A stretch of 43,917 nt of DNA from Tubiluchus corallicola. Lineage: Eukaryota; Animalia; Priapulida. Location: contig JAQGDQ010001375.1 in NCBI GenBank assembly GCA_030141605.1, forward strand, positions 1 through 43,917, written 5' to 3'. Position 1 is the stretch's first letter; each line of letters starts with the position of its first letter. Both the position numbers and the translations under genes were made by a program. Below the pieces are notes generated by a model. That model did no database searches. It was not told where the DNA came from and saw only the letters and a program-made list of their open reading frames with translations. Positions 1 through 42,883 of the stretch are shown here, in pieces.

Positions 1-2456
1 GTTCTCATCAGACGTTGGGCTCTTGCAGACGTCCCATCGAGTTTGTCGACGAGGTTGACGTCAGCTGTAGCGCTGCCACTGGCGCTGCTGCTGCTGCCCA
101 ATGTAGCTGCAAATGCAGTAGGGAAGAGTGTGACGCTTTAAGATTCGATCAAGATCAATTAGCAGCCGGTTCTCATCAGACGTCGGGCTCTTGCAGACGT
201 CCCATCGAGTTTGCCGACGAGGTTGACGCCAGCTGTAGCGCTGCCACTGGCGCTGCTGCTGGTGGTGCTAGCATAATCAACGCTAATTGTAGCGGGTTTT
301 TAAGTGATGACGATGACGACGACGATTTCGGTCAATTCGACGTCGACGCGATGATGGAAGAGGATAATGATGATGATGATGATGGAGATGACAATGACGG
401 TTTTGACAACGAGGATGACGATGACGAGGAACAAAGACGAGGACCAGGTATTACCTAGCACCAAGACGTCTGCGACAGCACCACCAGCAGCAGCAGCAGC
501 AGCAGTGCTGCCACCTCCAAGATTGCATCACCTTCCAATCATCACTGCTAGAATGATGACTAGAACAGCAGCTGTACCTAAAACTGCGCCACCGACGCCG
601 CCACCACCGCCACCACCACCGTCGAGATTACAGCAGCACAATGTCAACATTCGGGTCGCGTCTGCTAGCAATATTTCGCCACCGCTAACATCAACAACAT
701 CGACAGCAACAACAACAACAACAGTGGCGTCATCAACGAGCAATGGGTCCCCCACCCAACATCGTTTTTTGTCAACCCGAGGAAAGGTACACCCCATCAG
801 GATAAAGATAAAAGAATATTTTAAAAAGTAAATACACTTCAGTCTCTGGCAATTTTAGTCTAATAGTAAAGCACCTCAGTTTTTTTCTCTTTGTACATCT
901 AATCTAGATAAAAGTAAAATTTTAAATACCCTATTGTCAAAAAAGAAATCATTCAATAAAAATGTGGCTAATGCAACTTGTGAGTTTTTGGGATTATATA
1001 TATATATCCTCGCCTAAAAAATACTGACTTGTTGAAATGCATGCAGACTAGAAGGCTGCAGGCATTCAATTATCTAGATCGCAGCTGTCCTACTGTCTGC
1101 TTGCTGTACATTCCAACGGGCTTTTAAAAAAACAGGTACATGCACTTAAATAGTCGCGGGTGTCATGTCTCGCAAGTCAATTAACGGATTAAGCCCTCAT
1201 TAGCTAGGTAGTCGAGTCAATTACCGGATTAAGCAATAGACACGTGCCTGCCTTGACGTCTGATCAGATGAGTGCATTCGTTGCGGGTTTAAACATGCGA
1301 GTTAGTACAGATAGAAAGATTTTTACAAAATAGACACGTGCCTGCCTTGGCGCCTGATCGGATGAGTGCATTCGTTGCGGGTTTAAACATGCGAGTTAGT
1401 ACAGATAGAAAGATTTTACAAAATGAAAAGATAATTTTAAGTAACATTAGTTATTATTGTTCTGTCGGATAAAAAAGTGGATGATGACCAAAGATCAGAC
1501 TCTGCTTTAGGTAATACCGCGTCATCATCATCATCGTCGTCATCATCATCATCGTTGGATACAGTTGACAAAAAAATAAAGAAACCCAGAAATTAATCAT
1601 GCTCGGCGACGTGTGAGTAGACTGTATGTTACACGTGGTAACGTTCGTGCTAATGGTCGGCCCGTGCTAACAATCGTGCTCGGCGGTGTGTGCGCGTGTG
1701 AGTAGACTGTATGTTGCACGATGCGACCGCATTGGATGGAGCGAAGGAGGCTTTTCGGCGACGGCATCCATCCATCCATCCATCCATCTCGGATAAAGGT
1801 AGGATAAAATTTTTGAAAATTGTATTGCAACTTAGACACGCATAAAAGAACATTCTAACCCGGATGAGGGTGGGGTAAAATTTTAAAAAATTGCATGGCA
1901 ATTTAGACTCGCATAAAAGAACATCCTAACCATTTAACGACGACGACGAGACTGTGCACTGCTGCACGTGGGTAGAGAAATCTTTTAGCCCATTATCTAG
2001 CTAGCTAGGCGGCGAGAGTCGATTACCGGATTAGCCACAATTAGGGTGGAGCAAGCAAAGTGCGCAGCGAGCGCGTGTCGAACGGACGACTGCATTTACT
2101 GCGGAGGGGGGGTGTTCTCGCCGGGCGCACCCCCCCCAAAGCGTGCGGGAGTTCCAACCGTCACTCCTAATCCTTAAATCGAGCACTTAACTAGCGCAAC
2201 AATAGACCCACTTCACTTTTTTTTAGGGGGTGATTTTTGTTCCCACCCCCGGCAGCCGAGCGGGGCGTGGCTCGTCGACCAACCGTCACTCCTAATCCTT
2301 AAATTGGTCACTTAACTAGCACGACAATAGAGCCACTTCACTTTTTTAGGGGTGTTTCCGGATTTTCGCACTTTTTTAGGGGTGTTTTTCCCCACCCCCC
2401 CGGGGAAATCCCCACCCCCCCGGGAAATCGGCCAGAGGTGTAACATCTAACCTACT
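1..2456. mobile_element. Probable right end of a Polinton/Maverick-like element (terminal ORF plus repeat-rich TIR region)
   Basis: GC-richer block ending abruptly at ...TAACATCTAACCTACT (2456); reverse complement begins AGTAGG, resembling Polinton AGTAG(T) termini. Subterminal G/C runs and several short direct duplications (~94 bp at 1235-1424, 71 bp at 1790-1931, ~124 bp at 2155-2360). No hallmark gene (pPolB, integrase) is in the window. Confidence 0.5.
3..458 (+). CDS. 3' end of an intronless low-complexity acidic ORF (open from the window edge), probably element-encoded
   Basis: Frame open from base 3 to TAG at 456-458; internal repeat with 168-bp (56-aa) period (GSCRRPIEF.DEVD.SCSAATGAAA) and a D/E-rich tail; AATAAA at 955. 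Confidence 0.4.
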   Translation, partial: SHQTLGSCRRPIEFVDEVDVSCSAATGAAAAAQCSCKCSREECDALRFDQDQLAAGSHQTSGSCRRPIEFADEVDASCSAATGAAAGGASIINANCSGFLSDDDDDDDFGQFDVDAMMEEDNDDDDDGDDNDGFDNEDDDDEEQRRGPGIT

Positions 2457-2554
2457 CATGCCGACGTACAAAATTTATTATTCATGGGCCCAGGGACTTC
2501 ATGAGTTACAGGGTACCGGCAATGTACCGGCTGCACCCCCTCCCCTTGGGCCTG
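2457..2554. mobile_element. Terminal fragment of a hAT-like non-autonomous element, apparently interrupted by the element to its left
   Basis: Ends in CCGGCTGCACCCCCTCCCCTTGGGCCTG (reverse complement CAGGCCC..GGGGGTGCAGCCGG), a CAGG-type terminus; the other end is not in the window. Confidence 0.3.
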
Positions 2555-2647
2555 CAGTTCACACCTCACACTTAGTAACTCACAAAAAGGTTAATGAATT
2601 TTATTATTTTTAGATTAAGTTTGGATTTTGAAGAACTCTCAGAGAGA

Positions 2648-2689
2648 ATGGAATACAAAATATATTTCGTGCTGTTCTTGCTGCAACTG
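2648..2689 (+). CDS. Signal-peptide exon (MEYKIYFVLFLLQL) of a putative secreted Tyr-rich peptide gene
   Basis: Acceptor TTATTTTTAG ending at 2613, ATG at 2648 with purine at -3 and G at +4, 14 codons (basic residue then hydrophobic core), perfect phase-0 GTAAGT donor at 2690. Joins in frame to every downstream cassette and gives an A-Q-A cleavage motif with most. Confidence 0.75.
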
Positions 2690-3015
2690 GTAAGTACAAT
2701 TCTATTGGCGTGCTTATGCATACATATTTCTATTTTTTATTTTAGTGCATTACAGTATTTTGACTTTTGTAAAAATCAAAATGCTCTTCCACTGCAATTT
2801 TTTTGTTTTCAAAAAGAATTTTTTCCCAATGGAAACACAAACAAAGCTATTGGTATTATTTTTTAACCGAGTTCCAAGAATGATATCACAACATTTTCAA
2901 AAATATTGACATTTACTGGATTTATTCTCGAAATTAACTCCTTTCTGGTACGTTGTAATTGAGACTTCTTCTTCCCATCATAGGAATAGCCGAGGGTCAC
3001 TGCGTATGCTTGGAA

Positions 3016-3066
3016 ACCGAAATTAAGCAACCCTGGGCCTGGTTTGTAAACGGACGAGCAACTGCC
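3016..3066 (+). mobile_element. Degenerate 5S-derived SINE head fragment (similar relic at ~5408-5437)
   Basis: ACCGAAATTAAGCAACCCTGGGCCTGGTTTGTA aligns to ACCGAAGTTAAGCAACGCAGAGCCTGGTTAGTA of the 5S head at ~19430. Confidence 0.45.
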
Positions 3067-3394
3067 AGTGAAACTATATCTGGGCAGTTATATTTGCAAC
3101 ATTTAATTATTTCGTCGAGCAAGAATGGGTTTTTAAACGTGGCTGAGACACTTCTGTTGGTTCAGTACCTCATTACTTGCACTCAAGGCAGGCAGAACTG
3201 CCTTGGTCCAAGTCAAAACTAAAACTTGTGGGGTCATGGATGGGTCTTGTTCAGTTTCGGAATGTGCCATAAGTTTTTTTACGTATGTATGATTGATATT
3301 AGCACAAATTGTCCTTTTTTAAAAAATTGATTAGGTGATTAAAATTTCGACAAATTTGTGACGTAATTAGTAGAACCAATGACGTTCCTTCTAG

Positions 3395-3484
3395 GTTTTT
3401 GTTGTTGCACAGGCAGGGTTTTTATGGGGCGACTGTTTTCTCGATTTGGATCGTCGAATTTATGAAACTGAGAAAGAAGTATGA
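3395..3484 (+). CDS. Peptide cassette exon 1: VFVVAQAGFLWGDCFLDLDRRIYETEKEV* (tail shortened by deletion)
   Basis: TTCCTTCTAG acceptor, phase 0, homologous to the other cassettes. Confidence 0.6.
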   Translation, partial: VFVVAQAGFLWGDCFLDLDRRIYETEKEV

Positions 3485-3940
3485 TTAAATGGGAGTGAAT
3501 CAACATTAATAATTTTTATGACAATTTTAAATCAACCTGGATTATAATTTGGAATGTCTTATTGATTTTTGTAAAATTTATTAATATCCTTCAATTATAT
3601 TTTTGGGCGCACATTAAGCAAATGTTGTCAAGCAAACATTAAGTACAATGAGTTTCCAGTTAATGTGAAGTATTAGTGATGAATTTGAATGCGTAAATCT
3701 AATGTAGATGAACATGATTAATTTTTTTACATTATAAATATAGAACAATGGCTTTCTGTATATGAAATGATGATCAAACTTTCAAATTTCTGTACCATCG
3801 TTGTTATTGTCTGGTCAATATATTACTGTAACTGCTATACCACTGACATCCACTATAGTTAGGACACAGGAATGACTTTCTTCAAAATTTTTATCATCTT
3901 TAAGTTTTAGTGATCGCCACATCTTGCACACTTTTACATA

Positions 3941-4358
3941 CAGTAGCGGATTTAAGGGGTGGGCCCTCCCTTTCACAGTAGCAGTCACAGAACACCAAGT
4001 GAATATTTTCTCAGGATTATAAGCTTTAGAACGTTTAGTTGTAGCTTTTAATGACTTATATCCAGTAAAAAGTTCTGCATTAATGATTTCAGTGCAAAAA
4101 CGTTTGTGACCTTTAAGTGATAAATTGAAGTTTTTGGCAAAGATATCGCTGTGCGCAATTATATAGAGTGTATACTAGTATATTGGTGTGTAATTAAGAG
4201 TCAAAAGTTTGAGGTGACATAATGTGTTTTAAACTATTGAATTTGCTTAAGGAAATAGTAAGAAAAATGGACTAAAATGCAGTAAAATGCATTGGTAGCT
4301 GGGGTTCCCTAGACCCCCTAGCTGCTTTTTCGTTGAGCCCACCCTGTATCCGCCCCTG
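3941..4358. mobile_element. hAT-like MITE inserted in an array unit
   Basis: Imperfect TIRs CAGTAGCGGATTTAAGGGG / CCCTGTATCCGCCCCTG; flanks rejoin into array-unit sequence; TSD not recognisable. Confidence 0.5.
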
Positions 4359-6158
4359 ACCTATGTATGTAGAACTGGAAGATAAAGTATGATTCGTATG
4401 TATACGTATAATACAAACAAGTAAGTCATCTACATCGCAATATTCACGGACTTCTGAAAAATTATATGCGGTATTACACGTTTCATTACCCAAAATACCC
4501 ACAGCCACGTTTCAGATGTCCCTTGCCGTTGAAGATAAACCGCTGTCCGTAGATAGTTTTCTTTACCAGCTATTCTCAATTAAGACGCTTGTAGTGAATT
4601 ACTTAAATAATCCTATTCAAGGTGAGATTGTGATGCCAATGATAAGTTGCATGCTAAAGATGTGAATCACAAAACATATACAGACATCAATTTGTTACAT
4701 AATAATAATAGCAATCAAAACCTTATTATGAAGTTAACCTAGATGTGCCTATTGTGTAGTAGATGGGAATCTAAAAGGCTTATTTTTGCATTGACTAGTA
4801 CAGAAAGAAAAAAATCTAAGAAAGTATATCTTAGAAGCTACGAATGACAGAACCTTAGTTATACATCTTGGATGTTATCAAAAACCTGGATGAGTACAGC
4901 ACAGGCAAATAATTTTTCTTCCACATGGTACACACAGAACAGAAATTATTTGAGCTATCATAAATTTCATCTCAATGTATGCATTCAAAATGTTTCCACG
5001 TTTAAGTGCTACCTAAACTTGCTTCTCAGTGACTAGTTTACCACTCCAGTATTATCCCCGAATGTCTACTGAATTATACAAAAGAAAATTATAAAGGATG
5101 AGCGTAGTTCATGTAATTATGGTCGCAGGGTCCTGCATTGTCTAACGATCATGATATTCGAAGTGTTATCTCAAAGTTTTTGGTTCAAATCCAGCTGCAA
5201 TCCTGATTTTTTAATCTTCGCTACATCAGGCACTGTGTAGAACTAATTCAATTATGATAGTTAAAACACTACCCTAAAATGTGAAAACTATAAAAATCTG
5301 CTTAGATTTAAAAATTCTTATTGACATCTGTTAGTACAATGCTCTAATTTTCACCACTAATTAAACTGAAACTTATACTTTTCACTAGGTGTGTGTGTGA
5401 TGCGAATTAAGTTAAGCAACACTGAGCCTAGTTAGTAAGTGTGTCTAATGATAATACCATCAGACAAGTATTTCTGGGCAGTTTCGTCTGCCATATAGCC
5501 TCTAACTATTTATCTCAATGAGGGAGATAAATCTGAATGTTTGGTATCTCATCTTATTACTGATGCAAATCAAATTAGGAATGCTGTCATTCGCTAGTTA
5601 ATAAACATTAGGTTTTTAATAAACTATTACTAGTAAATTACTAATAAACTATAATCACACAAAATTTAGCCACCACACTTCTAAGAAAAACATTTGTATA
5701 GCTAATGGCTCTTCCTTTTCTTTTAAGTATTTCTTGTTGCTGCTCATCCACCATTAATTTCCCCCTTCTGATCGCGAAGTTTATAGATCTGACTTTTCCG
5801 ATAGATTCTATTATTATGAATATTAAAAGGGGCTAGTACCTTGGTCCTTGACATCTTATACACGAGCATCACAGTTCCTCCACCAATCCATTCTAGAGAA
5901 TAAGGGATGGAAACTGTTCCCAAACGAATTAAGTTAACTGCTCTTGCTCGTTTTAAAATTTCTCTTTTTCCAATCATTTGTGCCCAAACTCGCCAGCATT
6001 TAAGCTCTTTCACCTCAAAAGATTCAGTCTTGTCTCAGCACCTCATACAGTCACCCATCAGATTTATGTATTTTGATTTTAAACCTAAGTGAAGTTTAGT
6101 TACATAAAATCATGGCATTTTATGAAATAATTAGTATAACCAATGACTCTTCTTCTAG

Positions 6159-6269
6159 GTCTTTCTTGTTGCTCAAGCCACGTTTCCATTTGTTGGCTAC
6201 TTTCCGGATTTTCATCGTCGAGCTTATGAAACTGATTATTATGAAGAACCATATTACTATATTATATAA
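6159..6269 (+). CDS. Peptide cassette exon 2: VFLVAQATFPFVGYFPDFHRRAYETDYYEEPYYYII*
   Basis: GACTCTTCTTCTAG acceptor, open frame, stop at the conserved position, AATAAA at 6492. Confidence 0.75.
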   Translation, partial: VFLVAQATFPFVGYFPDFHRRAYETDYYEEPYYYII

Positions 6270-7732
6270 ACACGTCTGGAGAAAAAAGGATGATTAAATG
6301 GCAACAAATCAATATTAACGATTTTATGTCAATTTTAATTCACCTTAACTGTTTTATTGATTTTTCTTCACTTTTCTAAATGCATACTAGTGTGTGCTAA
6401 TTAATTACTAATCATACTTTTGGGTACACAATAAACAGGTATGGTCAAGCAAACTTTAATTACAATAGGTGTCTTGTAAGTTTGAACTATGAATAAAATT
6501 GATGTCTAATTTGGATGAACAATGAATGATTTTTTTTACATTATAAATATATGCCTTTAGAAAGTTGGACTGGCTTTACCTTTTTTCTGATTAATCATCG
6601 TTCATCAATATTTGCTGGTGAACAAACGTTCACCATGTTGTATCATCAATGTCATTGTCTGCATCATTATATGCTGCCAATTCATCCATGACGTCATCAA
6701 CAATATTTACCAACAGGTTGATAAAAAACACCAATAAATTACATTTTTCAAGTTTTTTGTCAACTTTCAGTTTCAGTAGTCTACACATTTTACACACTTT
6801 TCAATGTTATACAGAATTCGTTTATATTACATTGTATACATACAATATATGTAACTAAATCATGTACAATGCAATAATTGTAAATAAGAAGTTATATGTA
6901 CTGTTACAAGTTTCAGCTCTCTAAACACAGACAACAACGCTATTTAGGTGAATATAATTCGTTTTTGATTTCGTAGAAGATGGATTTAGAAATGGCTTTA
7001 CGTATATAGATTGTTTAAAATTTATCAGTTTTTGTAACGTCATTGTCATAATCTTTGTCATAAGTTATGTCACCATCACCACTGAAGTCATCTCTGTTAT
7101 CGTTAGGTGGATTAAAAATACCAGTAATTACGTTTTCCAAAATACATCTTCCCCGTGCTCAAGTGATAACAACCGTTGTCACACTATGAAAGAGTTTAAT
7201 TTCAAGTTTCAGAAAAATTTGGTTGAGTTTGGACTTAGTTTGAGCAGAAAGGAGAAGAATATTCAAAGTGTAGCCCCTACATCGTTTGGCAAGTGCCTCT
7301 GTTCACAATGATGGGCTCAAAAAATAGATTCAACAGCAGATTAGAGTAGGTTTGGGAAGAATCTGTTCTGGAGAAAGAAGGGGGAAAGGACATTGGCCCT
7401 TGATGTGTCATACGTGAGCATCACACTTTCTCGCCAAATCATTTTTGGAGAATAAAAGATGGGAAACTCCCCAAATAGGATAATATTACTGCAGTTGCTA
7501 GTGTTAAAACATTTCAGTTTCCAGTAATATTGTGTCCAAGTTTGCATGTGTCAAAATGCAAAGTACTTAAGCTATTGTGCCCCACAAGTTTTAGTCTTGG
7601 TCTTGGCCCTGCCTCTTATACAATCACGCACTGGATTTATGTGTTTCAGCTTTAAAACTAACTAAAGCTTAGCTACTTAAGATTATGATATTTTTATGAA
7701 CTAATTAGTAAAGCGAATGACTCTTCTTCTAG

Positions 7733-7846
7733 GTTTTTCTTGTTGCACAAGCTGGGGTTCCATTTATTAACTACTTTCCGGATTTCGATCATCGAGTTTA
7801 TGAAACTGATTTTTATGAAGAACCATATTATTACTATATGATATAA
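7733..7846 (+). CDS. Peptide cassette exon 3: VFLVAQAGVPFINYFPDFDHRVYETDFYEEPYYYYMI*
   Basis: Conserved acceptor, in-frame +3 nt indel relative to cassette 2, AATAAA at 8070. Confidence 0.75.
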   Translation, partial: VFLVAQAGVPFINYFPDFDHRVYETDFYEEPYYYYMI

Positions 7847-8986
7847 GCAAGTCTGTTGAAAGAAGCATGATTAAATGGCAATAAGTCAATATAAACGATT
7901 TTATATCAATTTTAATTCACCTTAACTGTTTTATTGATTTTTTTCTAACTTTTCTAAATGCATATTAATGTGTGCTAATTAATTACAAATTATGCTTTTG
8001 GGTACACATTAAACGGATATAGTCAAGCAAACATTAATTACAATAGGTATCACGTAAGTGTGAACTATGAATAAAATTGATGTATAAGTCTAATTTAGAT
8101 GAATATGAATGATTTTCTTACGTTATAAATATATGCCTTTAGAAACTTGGACAGGCTTTACCTTTTTCTGATTCATCATCGTTCATCAACATTGGTTGGT
8201 GAACAAATGTCTAAGATGTTACATCATCATTGTTATTGTGTTCATCATTATTGCTGTCACTTTATCCAGTGACATTATCCACTCTAATTACCTTGCAGGT
8301 TAATAAACACCAGTAGAAATTTTTGTCACCTTTCATTTTCAGTAATCTACACATTTTGCACACTTTCGTGTGCACACAGAATTCGAAGAACATTGCAGTA
8401 TATACATATAATATAAGTAACTACATCACGTATTATGAAATAATTGCAGATAAGAAGTTGTATTTGTTCTTATAAGTTTCAGCACCCTAGACACAGACAA
8501 CAATGCTGTTTGGTTGAACAGAATTCGTATAATATTATGACCTCATAAAATGCAGATTTAAAAAATGGTTTTACGTACATTGATTTGTTTTAAACCTATA
8601 AATTTCTGGTAGGCTGGGAAACCAGAAATTCTGTAGAAGAAGGGGACAATGACAACGGCCTTTGAGATCTCGTACACGAGCATCACATTTTATCCACCAA
8701 TCAGTTCTGGAGAATAAAAGATGGAAAGTGTCTTCAAAGTGATTAATATATCAATTCTTGCTCGTGTTAAAAATGTCTGTTTCCAACCATTTTTTGTCCA
8801 AATTTGCATGTGTTCAAACATCCGACTAGTTAAGCCCTTGCACCCCACAAGTTTTAGTCTTGGCTCAGCCCCTTATACAATAATGCATTAGATTTGTTTA
8901 TTTTGGTTTTAAAACTAACGAAGGTTTAGCTGCTTAAAATCACCACATTATGAAATAATTTGTATAGCGAATGACTCTTCTTCTAG

Positions 8987-9103
8987 GTTTTCCTTCTTGC
9001 TCAAGCCGGGTTTCCATTTACTGATTACTTTCCGGATTTTGATCGTCGAGTTTATTATGAAACTGATTATTATGAAGAACCATATTATTACTATATTATA
9101 TAA
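8987..9103 (+). CDS. Peptide cassette exon 4: VFLLAQAGFPFTDYFPDFDRRVYYETDYYEEPYYYYII*
   Basis: Conserved acceptor, two in-frame TAT insertions relative to cassette 2, AATAAA at 9487. Confidence 0.75.
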   Translation, partial: VFLLAQAGFPFTDYFPDFDRRVYYETDYYEEPYYYYII

Positions 9104-10578
9104 GCAAGTCTGTTGAAAGAAGTATGCTTAAATGGCAATAAGTCAATATAAACGATTTTATGTCAATTTTAATTCAACTTAACTGTTTTATTGACTTTTT
9201 CCAACTTTTCTAAATGCATATTAATGTGTGCTAATTAATTCCTAATTATGCTTTTGAGTACACATTAACCAGATTTGGTCAAGTAAACATTAATTGCAAT
9301 AGACGTCATGTAAATGCGACATTCTAATCTCGTGTCTATCTAATTCGCCTTAGATTGTTTTAATGATTTTTTTCAACTTTGCTGATTGTGCATTAAGATG
9401 AAAGAATTATGTTTTCGGGAACACATTAATCAATCATTGTCAAACAAAAATTAATTACAACAATTCTCCTGCAAATGTGAATTCTGAATAAAGTAAATAT
9501 TTAACTCTAATTTAGTTGAGTATGATTGATTTTTACATTAGAACTGTATGTCTTTAGAAAGTTAGATGGCTGTACCTTTTTCTCTAATTCATCATCAATC
9601 AACAATATTGGTTAGTGATCAAACCTCCAAAATATTGTGTCCCCATATTCATTGTGTTTGTCATTATTGCAGTCACTGCTGAATACTAACGTTGTACACT
9701 ATTAACGCAGGTTAATAAAAAACTTTGAGTTATAATTCTCACAATTTTTATCGTCTTTCTCCTTCAATAACCTATACATCTTGCACTTTTACATAATTAT
9801 TTATACAAAATTTGAAGATGTTACAGTGTATACATTCAGCAATAGCAGATAAGAAGTTATATGTGCTCTTAGAAGTTTCAGCCCCCTAAACACAGACAAC
9901 AATGCTGCTTAGATGAACATAATTAGTTTGAAATAACATTTTATATTGCAAGATGAACATAATTTGTTTGAAATAACATTTCATGTTGCAAATATGAGAT
10001 CATATTTTATGATCTCATAAAATATAGATTTAAGAAAATGGCTTTACATATATAGATTGATATCAAATGTATATGTTTCTGTGCCATTGTTTTCATTGTC
10101 TTTATTAGTGTTACCTTCGTCATCACTACTGAAGTATCGTCTATTATCACATAGGTTGATTAAAAAACGCGATTAATTATATGATCAAGTGGTAGAACAA
10201 TGGCTATGATGCAATATGCCAGATTTTTATTCCAAATTTGGGAAAAAATGTGGATAGCTTTATGGTCTGGTAGGTGCCTCAATTCATAACGATTGACTCA
10301 GAAAAATAGAATCAACGGTAGACTAGGGTAGGTTTGGTAACAATCATTCCTGGAGAAAAAGAGGAAAAGTACGTTAACTGGCCTTTGACATCTTGTATAT
10401 CGCACTTTCTCGATCAATTCTGGAGAATTTAAGATGGGATATACCTCGAAACTGATTAATGCTACTACTCCTGATCGCGTTAAAATTTTCCAATCATCTT
10501 GTGTCCAAATTTACCTGAGCCCAAACGCGCGGGGGTTTAAGCCCTAGCACCCACAAGTTTTAGTCTTGGCCTAGCCCC

Positions 10579-11250
10579 TTATTATTATTAACGTCATTTT
10601 ATTTCGAGCATACTTTATGTTAGTAATTCATGAAAAGTGTTAGCAGTCAAGGTTATTTATACAATTAGTAATAAAACAAAATAACAATTGTAAAAAGGAT
10701 TAATGAGCCTAGTATTTCTGATCAAATATATGAGCTGTACAATTTCTTTCAAATTAACCTGTATCCATGTAATCTAGAATTGATTGCAGCTGTGCTGTGT
10801 TTAAAAAAATCAAAATCATTGCATTCTAGGCATTCGATACAGTCTCTAGCCAAATTAACAATTACCTGTTGGTTTCCTATCAAAGCCTTTTCTTCACTGA
10901 TCTCCTTGCCAAAGTATTATATCCATATACTAACTGATAACTACTACAGCTCAACGTATAACATATAAGTCATAAATTAAAATACATTGCTGATTTAACA
11001 GTAAACAGAGCTTGGTGTGTCACAAACTTAACAATAGTGTTACTACTTTGTTTACAATTAAAATAGTATTTAATAAAACGCTTGACAAACTGTTGACTTG
11101 GATGGACAATATTGGCAATATAAGGTAATATATAAGGGTGTTCTCGACATGGGTTCTCGATATGGGAGGCACCATAACTGCCGCACGTCAATATTCCAGG
11201 AATATTGATCAAATTTCAATGACAGTTTTCACGATTACACAGTCGCGTAT
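10579..11250 (-). mobile_element. Insertion in an array unit, possibly a 5'-truncated LINE 3' end with short (TAA)n tail
   Basis: Interrupts the unit between GCCCCTTAT and TAGCTACTTAA; begins with TTATTATTATTA; absent from the other units. Confidence 0.35.
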
Positions 11251-11317
11251 TAGATTAGCTACTTAAAATCAGACGTTTTAATGAAATAATTTGTAAAGCG
11301 AATGACTCTTCTTCTAG

Positions 11318-11428
11318 GGTTTTCTTGTTGTTCACTCCGCTTATCTGTGGACGGACTACTTTCCGGATTTTGATCGTGGAATTTATGAAACTGATTTTGA
11401 CGAAGACCCATACTACTATATTATATAA
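11318..11428 (+). CDS. Peptide cassette exon 5: GFLVVHSAYLWTDYFPDFDRGIYETDFDEDPYYYII*
   Basis: Conserved acceptor and stop, conservative E>D and synonymous TAT/TAC changes, AATAAA at 11650. Confidence 0.75.
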   Translation, partial: GFLVVHSAYLWTDYFPDFDRGIYETDFDEDPYYYII

Positions 11429-12236
11429 ATGTACCTGAGAAAAAAGCATGATTAAAGGCAACAAATCCATATTAATGATTTTTATGTCAATTTTAATTTA
11501 CCTTAGACTGTTTTATTAATTTTCTTTAACTTTTCTTTTCTATGCACCTATGTTAAGGTGCCTTAATTATGTTTCCTGTTCACATTAACTAAACATTGAC
11601 AAGTAAACACATATTACAATGCGTCGTGATTTGTAAAATGTGATTTATGAATAAAATGGATATGTGAATTTAATTTAGATTAATGTGACTGATTTTTTAC
11701 ATTATAAATAATTACATTATAAATCCTGCTGCCACTGACGTCATCCACTATAATTATCCTAGCCACAGATTGATACAAAACACCAAAACACCATGAATTA
11801 TATTCTCATAAGTTTTTATCATCTTTCAAATTCAGTAATCTACATATCTAAATTGATTTAAAACGTATAAGTTTTGTACCATCATTGTCAAATACGGCTT
11901 CGTCACTATTGCTGTCGCCATCGCCGCTGACGTCATCACCTATTACCTTGTATGTTAATTAAAAACACCAGAAATTATATTCTCAAAATTTTTTAAGTTA
12001 TCTTTCTTTGTATACAGAATTGGAAGTCATTACAGTGCATAATTGTGACTGTATTCTCACAATGAGTACTCACGATGTAAGCAACTAAATTATCCGCATC
12101 ATTATCTACGCAATATACTCACAGAAAAGAAATTAGCTGTAGGCCTATTACATTACGTTTCAGCAACCTAAACAATAAACACAGGGATTCGTGGTTTAGA
12201 TACACTGTATAGATAGTTACTTTCCCAACTTTTTAA

Positions 12237-12512
12237 TACTGTCATTGTCTTCACCACCATAGTCACTAGTGTCATCCTTTAGAATGGCATTGCACCTTGA
12301 TTAAAGGGCAAGGAAACAAAATTCTTTACTATTGTCATTGTCTTCACGACCATAGTCACTGGTGTCATTTTTTAGAATAGGGTTACACATTGATTAAAGG
12401 ACAATGAAACAGAATTATTTACTATTGTCATTGTCTTCACCACCATAGTCGCTAGTGTTCTCCTTTAGAATAGCGTTACACATTGATTAAAGGACAAGGA
12501 AACAGAATTATT
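12237..12512. repeat. 93-bp tandem repeat, 3 copies (2 copies in the right arm at ~35220-35400)
   Basis: GTCATTGTCTTCAC recurs at 12241, 12334 and 12427. Confidence 0.9.
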
Positions 12513-12904
12513 GTATGAAGCATAAAAAGCCCGTCTTGAAATTTTGTATCAGTTACATGTTGCTTTCTACACACAGAGTTTATATTAGCAGCAACGTTTT
12601 ACTAAACTTGTAAATTCAATTTAGGCGCAGTCATTTTAACAGTCAGATGTTGAGTAAGAAATTAAAGCAAGTTCTGTTAATAAATCAATTTGCTCCTGTC
12701 AATAAAATTAACAATATCCAATATATAACAATATATGTTTGTCTGTGAGCCAGTGACGTGTTAGTAGTTAGCACCAACATTTCAAATTATCAAGTAATTT
12801 TTTGAGCAGCTGCATTCGTTTTTCAAACAGTTAAACGTAATGCTCTACTTAATATAACTTTTGAAACATATATTATAAATTTACATTTTTTATCCTTCTT
12901 TTAG

Positions 12905-13015
12905 GTTATTGTGGTTGCCTATCCACCACGAGGTGTTCCATGGAATGATTATTTTCTCTATCTTGATCGTGGAGTTTATTAACCCAATCTGTACGATGAA
13001 CTATATTATGAATGA
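12905..13015 (+). pseudogene. Divergent cassette exon 6 with premature stop: VIVVAYPPRGVPWNDYFLYLDRGVY*PNLYDELYYE*
   Basis: TCCTTCTTTTAG acceptor; TAA at 12980-12982 where the mirrored copy has GAA. Confidence 0.55.
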
Positions 13016-13278
13016 AAAAAATGAAGGATACAAGAAGATTCCTTTGGTTTAGGTTCTTATTAATTCTTCGACTGAACCTAGTGGTTTGACCCAAATATGG
13101 AAACGTATACTGTGAAAATCTAGACATTTAAGGATAATTAAACGAGAGCGAATCTAGATTAATAATTTTTGTAACAATCAGAACCCAACATAAGCTGTTT
13201 TACAGGTTATTTTATAAACTGTACAAAATGTATTATGCTAATCGGATATGAACATCAGGTACATTTTTGATGTCACAG

Positions 13279-13327
13279 GCACACGCACGCACGCACGCAC
13301 GCACGCGCGCACACACACACACACACA
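13279..13327. repeat. (GCAC)n/(CA)n compound microsatellite (mirror ~34513-34563)
   Basis: Directly visible. Confidence 0.9.
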
Positions 13328-14814
13328 GATATATATGTAAGAAAACCTATATGTGTATAGAGTCATTTAAAACTTGTGAATTTCTGTACGTCGCTGTCAT
13401 TGTTATCATCGCCATTGTCAGCACCACTGTCGTTTATATTGCTCACTAATTACTATCCGGCTGGATTGAGCGGAATACCAGACATTATATTCTTATAAAT
13501 CGCCATCATCTTTTGCTTTAAAATTATTCATCGCGCATATTTTTACAAGTGAATATGGAACTGGAAGACATTAGAATGCAGAAGCAAGTTGATATACACG
13601 AAGGTGTCAAACACAGAATGATTCCTAAAACATATTCATTTATTAAAGTCACAGAAATATTTAACACCTATTTGTTGTCATCCTTAGTGGTGAGTGTTTA
13701 AAATGTGTAGTTATCAAAAATCAGAAAGTCATGGCGCGGTTGAAATGTCACAACCATTATGCAGAACTAATTACCTTAGCACAACTTTTATGCAGAAGTA
13801 ACTGGTGGTGATATAAAGGTTGTGCAGAATTCAACCATGTCATGACCTTCTTGTTCTGATAACTGCACATTTTGAAAATATACAACTGAGGATGCCACAA
13901 GAGACATGTTTAAATGTTTTGTGGATTTGTTTTAATAACAGCAAATTATGAACATGTTTTACGCAATCGCTCTGTTTGAAATTTTTACTATTATTAAGAT
14001 TTTCGAGGATAAATCTATTGCTGTATGTATACATAATACACGTAAATAACTTGTCTACAACGTAATACACAGATTAGAAATCAACTAAAAGGAAAACAGG
14101 ATGATTTTTCATATACTATCCCATTGTCCAGTACGGCAAAGAAGTATACACTTTAACACAATTAATACTGCAAGAGCCTTTCTGATAATTAAATAATAGA
14201 TTAAGATCTTAATTAACGGCAGGCGAGCCCAACTATTGATGACATCACAAATTAACATAATTTTCAACTTCAAAATCATTCCACGTGTTTGCGAAAGCGA
14301 AAATTGAAGTACAGTGCTACTGTATTCAGTGTGTTGTACTAAAACTAGGCAACTTTTAAGATAAAAATTCAAATTACAAATTTGCCGCTGTGCTCACGCA
14401 TAAGCTGTCGAACGTGTGTAGTTCATCACAAACTAACACATCTGAACCGAGAGGTACAGCACCCGTGTATTGAGCAGTGCATTTCCGAAATGCAGGCGCT
14501 AGTGCGTGTCTAACTAACGAATGGAGAAAAACTTGTAACGGCAGAGAACTAGTGGCGCGAACGCGGAAATGTGTTTGTGTGGTAATAATGTGTTCACGTG
14601 GGGCATTCTTTAAAAAATAGTGTTTTCTTTCAATATTTTAAAGAGTAGGTTGCTTTGACCTACAGTTTAACATTGGGTCCAGTTTTGCTTTAAACACGGA
14701 TATCATTGTTTTTACATGTTCATTACAGACCAAGATTTACCTGATGCTCCAGGGGTACATTGCTTTCCTCGACTTTTGTCGTGGATTTTATTTATGAAAG
14801 TGGGATTGACATCT

Positions 14815-17182
14815 ATATATTAATATTCTTGGTATGTTATATATATATATAAGATTCGAGGCTACAGCCTGGACGACGGCACCATTTGCGGCGATCTATA
14901 CATCAAACGAAAGGTCTCGGATCTAGTGTCGTGCCATTGATGGTTTATTTTTCGAATCGGGCCCACCGGGAGGAAGGGGGGGGGGCGAAAAACCTCCAAA
15001 AATGGCCATTTTTCGGCCGTTTTTTGCAAAACTTATACCTCTTATTTCTGAACAACGGGAACGGGCCGAGGGTGGTGCTGGGTATGGATTTGAATATTAT
15101 TATAATAAGTTTATAGTACTATTCAAGATGCGTAACGGTTAGCATGTGTATACATAAAACATTTACCGTTGTAGATATTGTACAGTCTGTTCTTATGTAA
15201 TTTCGCTGTGCAATACGTAGGCTTTCTTACGGTTTCTTTCAAGTGTTGCAAGACTAGCACAAGTTTTTCAAAAGCAAATTTGTTTCTGTTACTCAAAAAG
15301 AGTGAATTTGGTATAAAATTCGCCTCGCTAATTTGCAGATGAATTGTCAGAGAGCGTGGCATACATGATCGGTTTTTGGTTTTTGGGTGTAATAATGTGT
15401 TTTAAAAATGGCTTCTGTCATCGGGTGAAAGAGTGCGGTCCAGCTGGTACTCGCAAGTTATAAAATTTGATAATACAAGCCTTAACCCAGATGACCTGTT
15501 TTCACATTAAAGGCTTATAAATTTTTGTTAACGCGTTACTTTGATGGCTTAAAGAATTCTTAGTTATTATTGAACAAAAACAACCTAAAAATTAAATAAC
15601 TTACATTTTTCTACTGAATTTCAAACACATACGTTGCTGTAAAGATTGCCATGTTTCGCGTCTTTGGAGCGAGTCAGCGAGAATGACGTACCAGGCGTAG
15701 AAAGCGTCTTTGGTTACCGATGTTTGTTTACCGATCTTTGGTGACCTCATGACTGTACTCATTACGTCATTCGTCTCGCGCAACGAAAATGGCTGTTCTT
15801 CAAATTTAATACCAGTAACAACGAAGTGGCAAAATATCAAAAGAAACAAGTTTTACAGAAAAGTTTATAATAAAATAAATTTAATATTCGTAATGAAGGC
15901 AGGATTTTAGGTTTAAAAAGCTCATTTCATAGAGGGTTTAATTTGACTTTAATTTTTGGCCACCGTCTCATGAAACGTTCAAGCACTTATCTTTCAAATA
16001 CATAAAGTACAACTAGCTGACCCAACTGTCCACCTACATGGAAAATTAACTCCAGCTTAAAGTCACAAGAAGAATTATGTTCATGTATTTACTGTTCAAT
16101 CCAAAATTAAAAGGTATCTGCTATTAATATGAGTCCACCCCGGGTGTGTAAATCTCATAACATTACTGCACTTTTACCTGCTTATGTATTGCACTTTTTG
16201 AGCTAGAGAGGACCCAGTTTTGACATTTTGACCACCGTGTTTCCTGACAGATGCTTAACATGCGTTCATCCAGCTCCTGGTTCTGCGCAAATGCAAAGTA
16301 GCTCTGGCTCTAGTCCTGACTCAAGAATCTTCTTACTTCTGGCCTTGATTACACGACCTGAGTGGCTATAATTGTGAATTGAGAAGTTTTCGCGTAATAA
16401 TCTTTACTAGCAAAGGCCCCGCAAAAGATTTTGCGTAAAAAACCACGTGTAATGAATGACACGCGAACATTCTACCTAGTCCTCATTTTTAACACAAAGC
16501 CCGTAGCAGCTTTTACTGAATTACAGCAGCGTAGCAGCTTTTTGCTGAATTAAAGCTATAAGATTATAGACAGAACACAATGGATGACGTCACAACAATG
16601 CCTATGCGTCAGTAGTTTCTTAAGCGAAAATTGCGGAAAATAGAACATCTAATTAACTCGCCAGTACTCCTCTCGGTGGACCTGACCTAAAATGTAGCCC
16701 ACATCACCGTGTAGCCCCGTTCTTCCTCTTTCTGATGAGCCCCATATCTTCTTCCGAGAGTCCCACCAGGCGCCGCCAGAACGTTTTTTCCGCAGGCTGT
16801 TTGGTCAAAATCGCGAGTTGGGTCCGGGAAAACGCCCGTTGCGGGGCACCCTGGCCCTCTCGCGAATTCTAAATAGGCCTATGACACCCATCGCTGAACG
16901 GGCTATCTATCTATACCCAGCACCACCCTCGGCCCATTCCCGTTCTCTACATCTCAGGCGTATAACTTTTGCAAAAAACGGCCGAAAAATGGCCATTTTT
17001 GGAGGTTTTTCGCCCCCCGTTCCTCGCGGTGGGCCCCATTCGAAAAATAAACCCCCAATGAGACGACACTAGATCGAGACCTTTCGTTTGATATATAGAT
17101 CGCCGCAAATGGTGCCCTCGTCGAAGCTGTAGCCTCGAATCTTATATATAAATAAATATATATACCAAGAATATTAATATAT
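14815..17182. mobile_element. ~2.4-kb non-autonomous DNA element with ~270-bp TIRs and TA-rich ends
   Basis: 14815-15089 is the imperfect reverse complement of ~16910-17182 (ATATTAATATTCTTGGTAT..(TA)n..AAGATTCGAGGCTACAGC...GGTGCTGGGTAT); no transposase ORF; superfamily not assignable. Confidence 0.8.
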
Positions 17183-17899
17183 TAGTAGATTAAATTACAA
17201 AAGTCAATTGAGAAAGCACTGAAGCGATCAAGGGTAGCATTCCTTGCAGTGTATTGCACGTTGGTCCCTGGTACAAACTCCAGCTGTGTTCAGGTGTCTT
17301 TAGGTGCAAAAGTTTCATTGCGACCGTTCTAAGCACGTGTATCAGGTGTTCTTAAGAAGATTTTAGGCAAGGTTTTTTTCTACGGACAATAGGTAAGTAA
17401 TGCATGGGATTATATTATTATTTCAAACAATCACAAAATTATAGACAGAAAATATAATTATTAAAATTCTTATTGGCTGCATCGTGTCAACTTTTTATAA
17501 TAAATTTCTGAATCGACAAAGAGACGTGAAGCGCTCAGAACGGCCTTGATTTACAACACATTGCTCTTTTGTTCAATCTTTGGTCAGCACGCTCGCAGAA
17601 TCAGACTTCAGTTTCCAACTCCAAGTTACTGTCAGATTTTCAGGATTTGTTGTACAGTTTTGGAACACTTTTTAGTCTAGCGTGCATTCTTTTAACTCTG
17701 AACAGTGTTTTCATGTGACCCTTTTCTGCGAATTTGGCCGTAATATGGCATTTCTTGAAGACTGATTTGGCTGAGTGACTTTAGCCTCAACAGCCTGTCA
17801 ATTGCATCAGAAGTATCGTCTTTGCTAAATGCATAATGAGTGTTGCAGTTTTTCATACTTTTCTCTGCATACGTTCTGCGCAAGAAAAAACGTTTATAA

Positions 17900-19233
17900 A
17901 ATTCATCACAAAAATTCTACACCACAGTCTTATAAAGCAAATCCATTGACGGTGCCTCATGGCTTTCCAACCCAAGTTACCCTCCAAAGCTGCGTTGGTG
18001 TGTATTTTCCAACACGGTATAAAAACGGCAAGCATGTTGATAAACAGCTTTAACCCTTTCATTCCCAAATTATTTTTTTAATAAGAAAAAAATTTTTGGC
18101 TTGGTACTTTTGTTCAGTATGTCCATGTTGTTTACACATAATTGTTTTTTTCTACCTGTGCCCGCGTACTAAATATAGCCTGTGTCCCACGGGATACATT
18201 GGGATTCAATGGAAGCATAAAATGTGCTTCATTTTGCAACTGCTGATAATTTTTTAAAGTATTTAAGACATTTAGCATGCATGCTGTGCTGATCTGTACA
18301 AGTTGTCTTTAAAGTACTGTACCTTGCGCAGTTTTTTATGCCATGCAGATTTTCTAGTTCGCCATTTTATCGCCATTTTTTCTCTATTGTTATTGGCTTA
18401 AATCAAAATAACTATTAACAGATCAAATAACTGTCAGTTTTAAAATTTTATTAATTTTAAAGGCAGAAAATATTCATGTATCCCACGGGATACAACGGGT
18501 ATGAAAGGGTTAATACAGGAGTAACTACGATAACCCCTAATGGCAGCACCGTACATAGGAATCAGTACAACCGTAGAGTCAAACAACTCAGTATAAATGC
18601 TAAAAGGTTTAGACTTTGCAGTTATTACGCAAAGTGCTTTATTCGCGTGACAAGAAATGTCATTTGCAATTACACTAAAATCTAAAAATTCGGTAATAGT
18701 GATACCCAAGCAACTTCTGCAGTTATACTGATTTACTATTTTTAATTTGTTTGCATCACTGGTAAACTCAAATAGAGATCAAACTACGCATTTGCTACGA
18801 ACATGGACGACATTAACATAAATTCACAAGTTCCAGTTTTTGCATCGGTCGTGAACTACATTCAGCATTGATTGTAAATCTCTTTCATTTAGAGCTACAA
18901 GTACAATATCATCTGCATATGATAAAATGCATATTTTTATTTACTTTCACACATTTTTCCCATGGTTTCTAGGTCTAATGTCAGGTCATTTATTATATAC
19001 AGTGAAAAGAACAGTGGCAACAATATGCAGCCTTGTTTTAATCCCTTGCCAACATTAAGCCAGTCAGTTAAGAAACCATTTACTTGGACTCAGGGTTTTA
19101 CATTGTTATATATTTCTTTCAAGGCATTAAGCATTTTACCACTAAGACCAATGCAGAGAGCTTGTGCCACAGCATATCTCTATGGATACAATCAAAAAGG
19201 CTTTGCTAAGGTCAATGTATGCCGCAAAAATTG
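17900..19233 (-). mobile_element. Degenerate non-LTR retrotransposon (LINE) reverse transcriptase fragment
   Basis: Mirror of 28657-29990; RT motifs interrupted by stops and frameshifts. Confidence 0.85.
18054..18509. mobile_element. piggyBac-type MITE (456 bp) nested in the LINE relic
   Basis: TTAA TSDs at 18050-18053 and 18510-18513; TIRs CCCTTTCATTCCC / GGGTATGAAAGGG; internal near-palindromes TGTRTCCCACGGGATACA. Confidence 0.9.
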
Positions 19234-19387
19234 ACTCTCAGTTTGTACATGAAAGAGCCAACCTCTAGGAATGTTCCCTCTTGTAGTTATGGAAAATGCA
19301 AAATTGTGTAAAATGTTCTTCTGGCACTTATTACAGTAGTTTGTTTTCCCAGTTTGTAGACTTTGCTTGGTGTTAAACTAATTGTTT

Positions 19388-19942
19388 CTACGGCTATATA
19401 ACGTTGAAAACATCGGTTCTCGTCTGATCACCGAAGTTAAGCAACGCAGAGCCTGGTTAGTACTTGGATGGGCGACCGCCTAGGAATACCAGGTGCTGTA
19501 GGCTTGCGGGATGCCCACACTGTATCTCGACACTAGGCGAAGGAGCTGCACAAGGCAGCCAACGGCTAGAGGGCGGAGGAGGTCAAGTGACCCAACGGCC
19601 ATGTGTAGAGGAGTAAACCTTCCAAATCAGGCGTGGAGCCCCGTTGGCGGACCAGTGCAGCATGTTCACTGACTCCGGCAGCTCCTGGAGGAAACCTGGT
19701 GCCAAACGTATCGCTCCGCTTTCCTTTGGACTACACCAGGGAGGAAGAGAGGGGGTTCCTGTTGTCTGGGCAACGCAGGATCTCCATACACCTTGCCCAG
19801 GCATGCGCCCTGGAGATGCCACTCCAGTGGTTCAAGGATCGGATTGCTCAGCCACAGTCGACGCTGCAGCCCCATCAATGTGATCAATAACTGACTCTCT
19901 TGGCGCACACTCCATTGTCTTCCGAGACAGAAGGATGCCAAC
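19388..19942 (+). mobile_element. 5S rRNA-headed SINE (SINE3 type), full length with 13-bp TSD
   Basis: 5S-like 120 nt at ~19386-19505 (GATCACCGAAGTTAAGC...GTTAGTACTTGGATGGGCGACCGCCTAGGAATACCAGGTGCTGTAGGCTT) with no oligo-T terminator; GC-rich body; AAACTAATTGTTT duplicated at 19375-19387 and 19943-19955. Confidence 0.9.
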
Positions 19943-20499
19943 AAACTAATTGTTTGCTGGTTGTTGTAATCTGTACATGGTACTGTTTTTTTTGCAGTTT
20001 TCTTTACATGATAACCTCTTTCCAAGTTATTTCTAGTTGTATTATGACATTTTGAATTTCACAGTTGTGTGATGATATAAGTTTTTCTATGCCTTGGTTA
20101 GTGGTGTCATAATTGTACTAATTAATTCTTTTGGCTTGATTTATAGCATTGAAAATGACATTTGCTGTCGAAACGATCGTTTGTTTCTCAATTTGATTCG
20201 AATATCTACAACTGTGATAGGCTAGACATGTGATCAAGACAACTTCTGAGTCCTTTCTATACCAGATTTGTCTTGGATATTTCACGCTAAACATGATGTT
20301 ACGTTCAAAGTTTAATAACTGTCTTAGTTTTAGGCAGGCATCTCAAATTCTTTCCAGTATTTAATGACAGAATAATGCTGTGCGATGACAGCAGTTAATT
20401 TTTTTCTGGCATAATAGCGGCAGACATCTCACGAGCTTGTCAATAAATATGTATTCAATCACCTACCAAATATATTTCTAGCAGATAAAAATAGCGAAC

Positions 20500-20522
20500 A
20501 GGTCACAAAGGTCACCAGGTTA
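20500..20522 (+). promoter_or_regulatory. Candidate nuclear-receptor element (AGGTCA-caa-AGGTCA, DR3, plus AGGTTA) upstream of a putative non-coding first exon of the SDR gene
   Basis: Two perfect half-sites, kept in the copies at 27346-27360 and 43378-43392; GTAAGT donor at 20587; acceptor TTTTTAG just before the first coding exon. Confidence 0.4.
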
Positions 20523-20780
20523 GCTGTTCAGTAGTACAAATGCAATGACTTATACAAAATCAAGTTGATAGTGAATGAAGTGCTAAGTAAGTTTGTGGTT
20601 CTGGGAATTGGTATTTTTCTAGTTAGAAGGTTTGGACTATTTTGGGTTAATATAATTTGATATCAGTGTTTCTAGGGAGCGGATATATAATTTCAAAAGT
20701 GAAGACCTAGGTATGTGTAAACAGAAGAACAAATAAAATAAAAAACTAAACGTTAACTAAGCAGTATGATGTTACCTGTA

Positions 20781-20888
<108 letters not shown>

Positions 20889-26992: not shown

Positions 26993-27079
<87 letters not shown>

Positions 27080-34727: not shown

Positions 34728-34829
34728 TCACAGTTCATCGTAAAGATTGCGTTCATAAACTCCACGATCAAGATAGAGAAAATAATCATTCCATGGAACA
34801 CCTCGTGGTGGATAGGCAACCACAATAAC
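34728..34829 (-). CDS. Peptide cassette 6': VIVVAYPPRGVPWNDYFLYLDRGVYERNLYDEL*
   Basis: Acceptor intact; lacks the premature stop of the left copy; 3' end altered by a ~110-bp deletion. Confidence 0.55.
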   Translation of the reverse strand, partial: VIVVAYPPRGVPWNDYFLYLDRGVYERNLYDEL

Positions 34830-36325: not shown

Positions 36326-36436
36326 TTATATAATATAGTAGTATGGGTCTTCGTCAAAATCAGTTTCATAAATTCCACGATCAAAATCCGGAAAGTAGTC
36401 CGTCCACAGATAAGCGGAGTGAGCAACAAGAAAACC
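36326..36436 (-). CDS. Peptide cassette 5': GFLVAHSAYLWTDYFPDFDRGIYETDFDEDPYYYII*
   Basis: Mirror of 11318-11428; open frame. Confidence 0.65.
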   Translation of the reverse strand, partial: GFLVAHSAYLWTDYFPDFDRGIYETDFDEDPYYYII

Positions 36437-37916: not shown

Positions 37917-38033
37917 TTATATAATGTAGTAATAATATGGTTCTTCATAATAATCAGTTTCGTAATAAACTCGACGATCAAAATCCGGAAAGTAATCAGT
38001 AAATGGATACCCGGCTTGAGAAAGAAGGAAAAC
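37917..38033 (-). CDS. Peptide cassette 4': VFLLSQAGYPFTDYFPDFDRRVYYETDYYEEPYYYYII*
   Basis: Mirror of 8987-9103; synonymous TAT>TAC changes. Confidence 0.65.
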   Translation of the reverse strand, partial: VFLLSQAGYPFTDYFPDFDRRVYYETDYYEEPYYYYII

Positions 38034-39568: not shown

Positions 39569-39682
39569 TTATATCATATAGCAAAAATATGGTTCTTCAT
39601 CAGAATCAGTTTCATGAACTCCACGATCGAAATCCGGAAAGTAATTAATAAATGGAAAGCTGCCTTGTGCAACAAGAAAAAC
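39569..39682 (-). CDS. Peptide cassette 3': VFLVAQGSFPFINYFPDFDRGVHETDSDEEPYFCYMI*
   Basis: Positional mirror of 7733-7846; frame and stop conserved, many amino-acid changes. Confidence 0.6.
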   Translation of the reverse strand, partial: VFLVAQGSFPFINYFPDFDRGVHETDSDEEPYFCYMI

Positions 39683-41129: not shown

Positions 41130-41288
41130 TTAAAACCGAAACCCAAATATCCAGTGCATGATTGTGTAAGGGCCAAGACTAAAATTTGTGGGGCGCCAGA
41201 GCCTAAATATCGTAAACTCGTAAACTCCATGCTCAAAATCCGGAAAGTACTCAATAAATGGAAACCCGGCTTGAGCAACAAGAAAAAC
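41130..41288 (-). pseudogene. Rearranged cassette: VFLVAQAGFPFIEYFPDFEHGVYE fused to intron-derived FTIFRLWRPTNFSLGPYTIMHWIFGFRF*
   Basis: Homology stops at ~41215 and is followed on the - strand by a duplicated piece of upstream intron (41111-41208 matches 41344-41441). Confidence 0.55.
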
Positions 41289-42772: not shown

Positions 42773-42883
42773 TTATATAATATAGTAATATGGTTCTTCA
42801 TAATAATCAGTTTCATAAACTCGACGATCAAAATCCGGAAAGTAGTCAATATGTGGAAACCCGGCTTGAGCAACAAGAAAAAC
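42773..42883 (-). CDS. Peptide cassette: VFLVAQAGFPHIDYFPDFDRRVYETDYYEEPYYYII*
   Basis: Conserved acceptor, open frame, AATAAA on the - strand near 42545. Confidence 0.7.
   Translation of the reverse strand, partial: VFLVAQAGFPHIDYFPDFDRRVYETDYYEEPYYYII

Follow-up and report, generated by a model that had tools for sequence, protein, structure and literature searches.

The DNA analyzed here, a stretch of 43,917 nucleotides (nt) from Tubiluchus corallicola (contig JAQGDQ010001375.1; hereafter the window), is AT-rich eukaryotic DNA with a GC content of ~0.29–0.47 per kb and spliceosomal introns, and a dehydrogenase gene together with the intron style identifies it as animal DNA. Its plus strand carries one short leader exon followed by six homologous cassette exons, C1 to C6, and a further six, R1 to R6, lie on the minus strand (Table 1). 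Tandem homologous terminal exons of the same phase thus stand behind a single constant exon, the arrangement of a 3′ tandem cassette gene. We propose that the leader is probably spliced to one of six alternative last exons in each transcript, giving rise to a small library of secreted peptides. A constant leader with variable last exons had been put forward in the first-pass annotation, whose layout, single leader, phase and acceptors hold; however, the splicing is read from genomic DNA, and two of the plus-strand cassettes, C1 and C6, are damaged.

Table 1. Features of the window; on the minus strand the exon start is the higher coordinate.
Feature	Coordinates	Exon start	Strand	Length (amino acids)	Remarks
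Shared leader exon	2614..2689	2614	+	14	5′ untranslated region 2614–2647, coding 2648–2689
C1	3395..3484	3395	+	29	~45 nt deleted relative to C2
C2	6159..6269	6159	+	36	Full length; ATTAAA at 6293–6298
C3	7733..7846	7733	+	37	Full length
C4	8987..9103	8987	+	38	Full length; only copy without the conserved ATTAAA; nearest AATAAA 386 nt past the stop
C5	11318..11428	11318	+	36	Full length, more diverged
C6	12905..12982	12905	+	25	Most diverged; early stop, TAA where R6 has GAA
R1	42773..42883	42883	-	36	Full length; no leader between R1 and the window end
R2	41130..41288	41288	-	52	Copy of upstream intron sequence in place of the tail
R3	39569..39682	39682	-	37	Positional partner of C3
R4	37917..38033	38033	-	38	Partner of C4
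R5	36326..36436	36436	-	36	Partner of C5
R6	34728..34829	34829	-	33	Partner of C6, open where C6 stops
Short-chain dehydrogenase	21313-24368		+		Four exons with GT-AG sites; Pfam adh_short

The coding part of the leader starts with ATG and encodes the 14 hydrophobic residues annotated previously, with a phase-0 GTAAGT donor directly 3′ of it at 2690. Residues 5–14 have a mean Kyte-Doolittle hydropathy of 2.47, and the exon would code for the n-region, and for most of the h-region, of a predicted signal peptide. Roughly two thirds of that signal peptide, but no part of the mature peptide, would come from the leader. Reading through the donor into the intron gives a frame of 72 amino acids without a Pfam match. 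On the other side, a pyrimidine-rich AG acceptor at 2612–2613 lies 34 nt 5′ of the leader ATG, so that either an upstream exon lies outside our view or the leader is trans-spliced. The claim that the signal exon is single is borne out, as nhmmer returned only the self-match in the window (next E = 0.29). Among 16 ATG-to-donor phase-0 candidates on the plus strand between 1 and 14000, only the leader has both a perfect donor and an uncharged, hydrophobic end, the exception among the 16 being a weaker hydrophobic candidate at 13618, 3′ of all plus-strand cassettes.

Upstream of the leader, positions 1–2460 form a GC-richer, repeat-like block with low-complexity open reading frames at 3–458 and 355–831, tandem pairs of 94 and 71 nt, and G/C runs. 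The block has no Pfam family, and one 21-nt word from it had no match in viral contigs. In sequencing run X1 (see below) its depth reaches 350 and loose ends occur at 2456 and 2491, suggesting that the block is probably a polymorphic insertion right 5′ of the leader.

All 12 cassettes possess their own acceptor and their own stop, and all are in phase 0. The six plus-strand exons start where the earlier annotation placed them; it missed the six on the minus strand. An in-frame TAG stands immediately 5′ of every cassette and no in-frame start is found near any cassette beginning, and translation of a cassette therefore needs an upstream phase-0 exon. The acceptor GACTCTTCTTCTAG is common to C2–C5, as previously described. 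Its final 25 nt are the most conserved part, with 0–12% difference among copies, whereas the preceding 35 nt differ by 0–25%. Between 2690 and 14000, 5 of 12 strong acceptor-like sites open a frame of at least 25 codons with a hydrophobic head, compared with 0/24 and 0/13 in controls; in this test the C1 acceptor falls below the threshold and the cassette copies are not independent of one another. Downstream of the stop, ATTAAA occurs at a conserved position, ~25 nt away, in 11/12 copies, even in the diverged C6 and R6. The AATAAA noted in the first-pass annotation does follow 8/12 copies within the 900 nt scanned, mostly with the nearest 163–386 nt past the stop, but its count is little above a background poly(A)-motif density of 1.3–1.5 per kb (1.48 per kb for AATAAA), and ATTAAA is the better conserved candidate signal. 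Eight copies, C2–C5 and four on the minus strand, are taken as full length, whereas C1, having lost ~45 nt, lacks the Tyr tail. R2 remains open for 52 codons despite its replaced tail, and recombination may thereby have given it a new C-terminus.

The minus-strand cassettes arise because the window is one large fold-back, an inverted duplication in which 3331–22973 corresponds to 24911–43135, with 13109–22973 matching 34734–24911 at 95.7%. Outside the array the arms differ by 0.3–5.1% per kb. On the cassette tree, the pairs C4/R4, C5/R5 and C6/R6 are strongly supported and C3/R3 moderately. The fold junction (~24917 to 22973) interrupts the dehydrogenase gene next to a 75-nt satellite and shows microhomology over 7 nt. 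Between the arms, dehydrogenase exons 1–2 differ at 13 nt but at only 3 amino acids, a pattern more readily explained by two alleles of an intact gene that the assembly has joined than by an old truncated duplicate; the two arms are thus probably two alleles rather than a real inverted duplication. Within the arms, a 2.9-kb segment (17516–20407 and its mirror) is 99% identical where the arms otherwise differ by 3–5%, pointing to recent coalescence or gene conversion. At the far end of the window, a 785-nt segment (43137–43917), related to 20008–20754 and 27106–27882, adjoins the R1 unit ~250 nt 5′ of its acceptor and probably represents the insertion of a dispersed repeat into the mirror arm's leader intron.

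Run X1 contains 0.25 of the words sampled from the window and covers 29/30 bins, introns included, and hence behaves as DNA, of a diverged haplotype. None of 15 X1 joints examined (of 18) begins at 2689. A second run, X2, presumed to be RNA and labeled as the same species, yielded 0 contigs on the window, which may reflect filtering, and no RNA run was listed for 2560–12500, a result that is neutral as to expression. Two X1 joints carry letters that match, as compared by eye, sequence upstream of R1, which shows that the R1-type unit did not arise through faulty assembly. X1 contigs also join cassette units in other orders than the window does, and because the arms and X1 differ in unit order and content, the cassette set is likely polymorphic. 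Such rearrangement, together with the recombinant nature of R2, is what a silent archive would predict, in which gene conversion or unequal exchange would overwrite a single slot next to the leader with sequence from the other cassettes, the diversity lying in the DNA rather than in splicing. We consider this very improbable, since every cassette keeps an acceptor and a poly(A)-like signal for which an archive has no need, and since C1, the cassette in the slot, ranks second in divergence and is no mosaic of other cassettes on the tree.

The mirror array bears on a further possibility, namely that the cassettes are expressed with a leader supplied in trans, with leaders outside the window, or as separate genes with leaders that we do not recognize. 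Leaders supplied in trans are known from mod(mdg4) and lola. The minus-strand array, with no leader inside the window, and the acceptor before the plus-strand leader, with no upstream exon visible, both speak for it, and yet it seems quite improbable. None of the 6 ATG-to-donor candidates in the mirror array is hydrophobic, and the search between cassettes found no hydrophobic candidate in either arm, so that a per-unit leader is absent. The window ends ~1 kb 5′ of R1, and a cis leader of the mirror array may lie beyond that end. On the plus strand, the cis order and the phase fit splicing from the single leader with no extra assumption.

Codon-level comparison of the cassettes supports the proposed frame to a modest extent. 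Over the first 23 codons of the 12 copies, with the 6-nt insert of C6 and R6 taken out, the ratio of nonsynonymous to synonymous differences (pN/pS) is 0.68 in the proposed frame versus 0.74–0.97 in the other five; 15/400 column permutations reach a value as low (about P = 0.04), and 17/400 leave every copy stop-free. Synonymous distances (pS) among cassettes are mostly 0.2–0.5, which indicates that the cassettes are old, yet 8/12 are full length. Between arms, partner exons differ at 4/117 positions for C4/R4 and 1/111 for C5/R5, compared with 3.6–6.4% in their flanks, whereas C3/R3 runs contrary to this pattern with 13/114. Collectively, these data point to a modest but consistent constraint on frame and acceptor.

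The predicted products have the features of secreted preproteins. By simple rules that score the parts of a signal peptide separately, the n-, h- and c-regions and small residues at -3/-1 are all present. The first five cassette residues have Kyte-Doolittle values of 2.4–3.8, and a small-residue -3/-1 motif follows cassette residue 7 in 10/12 copies, residue 5 in 11/12, and either or both in 12/12. The head VFLVAQA, earlier ascribed to the cassettes in general, is literal in C2 and C3, i.e., 2/6 on the plus strand, the other four carrying variants. Cut after residue 7, the eight full-length copies would yield peptides of 29–31 residues with a net charge of -3 to -7 and 3–10 Tyr. Cys is absent from 10/12 copies, and 8/12 copies have 4–8 Tyr per peptide with at least two Asp or Glu within 5 residues. 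Residues 7–13 are the most variable, while a YFPDFDR core and the Tyr tail are conserved, and full-length cassettes finish in a hydrophobic Tyr/Ile tail followed by the stop. An internal RR is seen in 5/11 aligned copies and is not conserved; Gly plus a dibasic signal, the hallmark of amidated neuropeptides, ends none of the peptides.

Judged by composition only, the cassette peptides may tentatively be taken for Tyr-modified acidic binding peptides, most likely sulfated. A Dopa-type function in adhesion or in a mineral matrix ranks second and is rather doubtful, being suggested by analogy to mussel foot proteins. Pheromone, antimicrobial and other roles would, at a guess, share the rest. By sequence, the peptides belong to none of these families.

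The failure to recognize the peptide family at first reading is matched by database searches, which are weak for short (36-residue), intron-split eukaryotic peptides. Pfam gave 0/8 queries at gathering score; a profile of 11 sequences against 1.84 billion protein representatives gave one match (2552 amino acids, no aligned stretch), which we treat as noise; among 5.8 billion protein clusters, 14 candidates of 15–91 amino acids were retrieved, none at E ≤ 10; the PDB profile search gave two Fab matches only, at E 0.7; and the ESM Atlas gave no usable match. Metagenome and viral contigs returned one 11-residue match each, one of them inside a 265-amino-acid open reading frame of a contig with 56% GC. 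A literature search found neither a description of these peptides nor a layout with six endings behind a signal-only exon, most subscription papers and supplements falling outside its scope. In the collections searched, the cassette peptides thus appear to be an orphan family.

Rfam, applied to 2400–14000, gave no family at gathering score and five weak matches, none over a cassette exon, and a small-RNA array is ruled out by this result. By eye, segments near 2970–3080 and 5390–5480 look 5S-like, with no Rfam match at E ≤ 1. The Rfam result also bears on the idea that the unit is a non-coding repeat, either a transposon fragment or a small RNA, whose frame exists by chance, an idea that gains from the exon divergence between paralogues being not much below that of the 3′ flank. 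We find it scarcely credible. Neither high copy number nor terminal repeats mark the unit, and a search within the window places it only in the two arrays, which, with the absence of an Rfam family, also speaks against a known dispersed transposon. X1 depth is 2–23 over the cassettes versus 150–350 over three repeat-like bins, a weak indication as depth is not copy number, and the fit of both phase and chemistry to the leader would have to be coincidence.

If the leader is indeed spliced to alternative cassettes, the transcript would run through the whole array, and the single donor at 2690 would scan to one of the competing acceptors. Cleavage at the weak poly(A) site of the chosen cassette, at ATTAAA ~25 nt or AATAAA ~225 nt past the stop, would then end the RNA, and a downstream cassette would come into use when the acceptors and poly(A) sites ahead of it are passed over. 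The chosen last exon would supply the end of the signal peptide and the entire mature peptide, which signal peptidase would free by cutting after cassette residue 7 (or 5), as a nearly Cys-free peptide of 29–31 amino acids with a net charge of -3 to -7. Tyr residues in the acidic tail would be modified, most likely by sulfation, and the peptide would bind a basic surface on a protein; the variable residues immediately after the cleavage site would tune specificity. Carried to its end, which is speculative and rather unlikely as a whole, the proposal would make this a peptide-library locus: a discarded secretion tag from which a cell or gland picks one of at least six whole-peptide endings, with a cassette set made haplotype-specific by gain, loss and recombination, so that a single promoter would give each individual its own repertoire of sulfotyrosine-type ligands, of a family lacking known relatives, for recognition of, or attack on, the proteins of another organism.

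Several observations weigh against splicing of the leader to alternative cassettes. At the leader itself, no spliced read was seen, splicing being inferred from genomic DNA, no promoter or first exon was identified 5′ of the exon, and a high-depth repeat lies directly upstream of it; the mirror arm has six cassettes yet no leader inside the window. A pairing test that took in 400 nt at the start of the leader intron and the 350 nt before each acceptor found best duplex energies for docking-site/selector pairing no better than shuffles in 10 cassettes (1–10 of 12 shuffles reach each), with one weak U-rich/A-rich helix as the only candidate. The proposed function has neither a homologue nor the taxon in its support. 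As for constraint, the eight full-length copies alone give a pN/pS of 0.72, which is matched by 76/400 permutations and thus not significant (no stop in 46/400), several cassette pairs have a pN/pS near or above 1, and frame +1 is likewise stop-free over the first 23 codons. The length differences previously said to be whole codons are so in the eight full-length copies, where 2/2 coding gaps measure 3 nt, while 2/12 flank gaps are multiples of 3; however, both coding indels lie within TAT runs, in which slippage gives 3 nt anyway. Finally, 4/12 copies are damaged or rearranged (C1, C6 and R2, with R6 shorter).

The non-significant constraint on full-length copies and the damage to C1, C6 and R2 would suit another situation, in which the leader is spliced to one cassette only, the nearest or a favored one, and tandem duplication has left the rest behind as decaying by-products. 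The varying unit order and content between arms and in X1 is likewise as expected of any unstable tandem array. We nevertheless regard a single used cassette as unlikely: it is the nearest cassette, C1, that is damaged, while C2–C5 are intact; acceptor, frame and stop are kept despite a pS of ~0.2–0.5; and C4/R4 and C5/R5, unlike C3/R3, differ less in the exon than in the flanks.

The remaining features of the window lie beyond the cassette array. Exon 2 of the dehydrogenase is closest, among solved structures, to 15-hydroxyprostaglandin dehydrogenase (15-PGDH; E = 1.6e-10). Sequence searches with a dehydrogenase exon returned generic clusters and no near relative. In the minus arm the fold cuts this 15-PGDH-like gene after exon 2, exons 1–2 being mirrored on the minus strand and the remainder of the gene missing beyond the fold. 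Two satellites are intronic in the gene, a 31-nt minisatellite of 27.8 copies at 23324–24186 and a 75-nt repeat of 5.5 copies at 24504–24917. Between the array and the gene, a ~2.4-kb element at 14815–17182 (mirror 30729–33083), whose terminal inverted repeats are 275 nt long and 88% identical and whose open reading frames lack a Pfam match, is likely a non-autonomous DNA transposon. A solitary full-length 5S ribosomal RNA match lies at 19386–19504 on the plus strand and is mirrored in the opposite arm.

The layout itself is of a known kind, the 3′-variable cassette gene. Secreted peptide families such as venoms, antimicrobials, pheromones and glues usually diversify by duplication of whole genes. 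If our interpretation is correct, duplicating only a last exon behind a split signal peptide would be a compact way to obtain, from a single promoter, many mature peptides that differ completely. As a 14-codon exon and exons of 25–38 codons are invisible to annotation based on open reading frames, other such loci may be widely missed. The locus would also offer a small natural test case of one donor choosing among six near-identical acceptors. Calcitonin/CGRP is a similar case of a shared 5′ exon. According to the accessible part of a 2025 venom paper (PMC12758981), toxin genes have rarely been documented to undergo alternative splicing. In the available part of PMC10327216 a shared leader of Dup99B was not found, and that case is not used here.

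The closest parallel is the CRF-like diuretic hormone gene of beetles, DH37/DH47, in which, as described in the accessible text of PMC6585902, the signal-peptide exon is alternatively spliced to duplicated last exons, with three mRNAs in Aethina. Both loci have a first coding exon with the signal and alternative duplicated last exons, which are RNA-supported in the beetle. However, DH37/DH47 has two or three endings and the Tubiluchus locus six; the constant exon of the beetle gene covers the complete signal peptide plus a portion of the precursor, whereas in the Tubiluchus locus the split falls within the signal peptide; and convertases cut the beetle products, hormones that belong to a known family, whereas no amidation signal ends the cassette peptides. 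In the gastropod FMRFamide gene, transcripts share only the 5′ signal-peptide exon and differ in their peptide exons (PMC4208409, available part). Compared by layout, not by sequence, that gene makes two transcripts encoding multi-copy precursors of amidated neuropeptides, unlike the single non-amidated peptides predicted here.

On the side of mechanism, the accessible portion of PMC6191721 lists 3′ tandem cassette clusters in Drosophila PGRP-LC, CG42235 and Pip among hundreds of such genes in fly and human, and gives a scanning model in which docking-site pairing is less often needed. Scanning would be the simplest mechanism for the Tubiluchus locus, with one donor, competing acceptors and a 3′ end for each cassette. 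PGRP-LC, as presented in that portion, shares the same 3′ cassette design with RNA support; docking-site pairing has been shown for it, whereas none was found above shuffles here, and the constant part of PGRP-LC-type clusters is a large functional portion of the protein, whereas the leader described here would be discarded on secretion.

For the products, the available text of PMC12434495 describes the hirudin tail, variegin and the tsetse TTI as small secreted peptides whose Tyr lies within an acidic segment and is sulfated to bind basic exosites. The cassette peptides resemble them in composition only, with no sequence match in Pfam or PDB, and those peptides are salivary thrombin inhibitors, whereas there is no evidence of blood feeding in this animal. 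Taken together, the Tubiluchus locus appears to differ from the known cases in its constant exon encoding a partial signal peptide, its six endings in each arm (with at least seven types of unit over both arms), its apparent cassette turnover between haplotypes and its orphan peptides.

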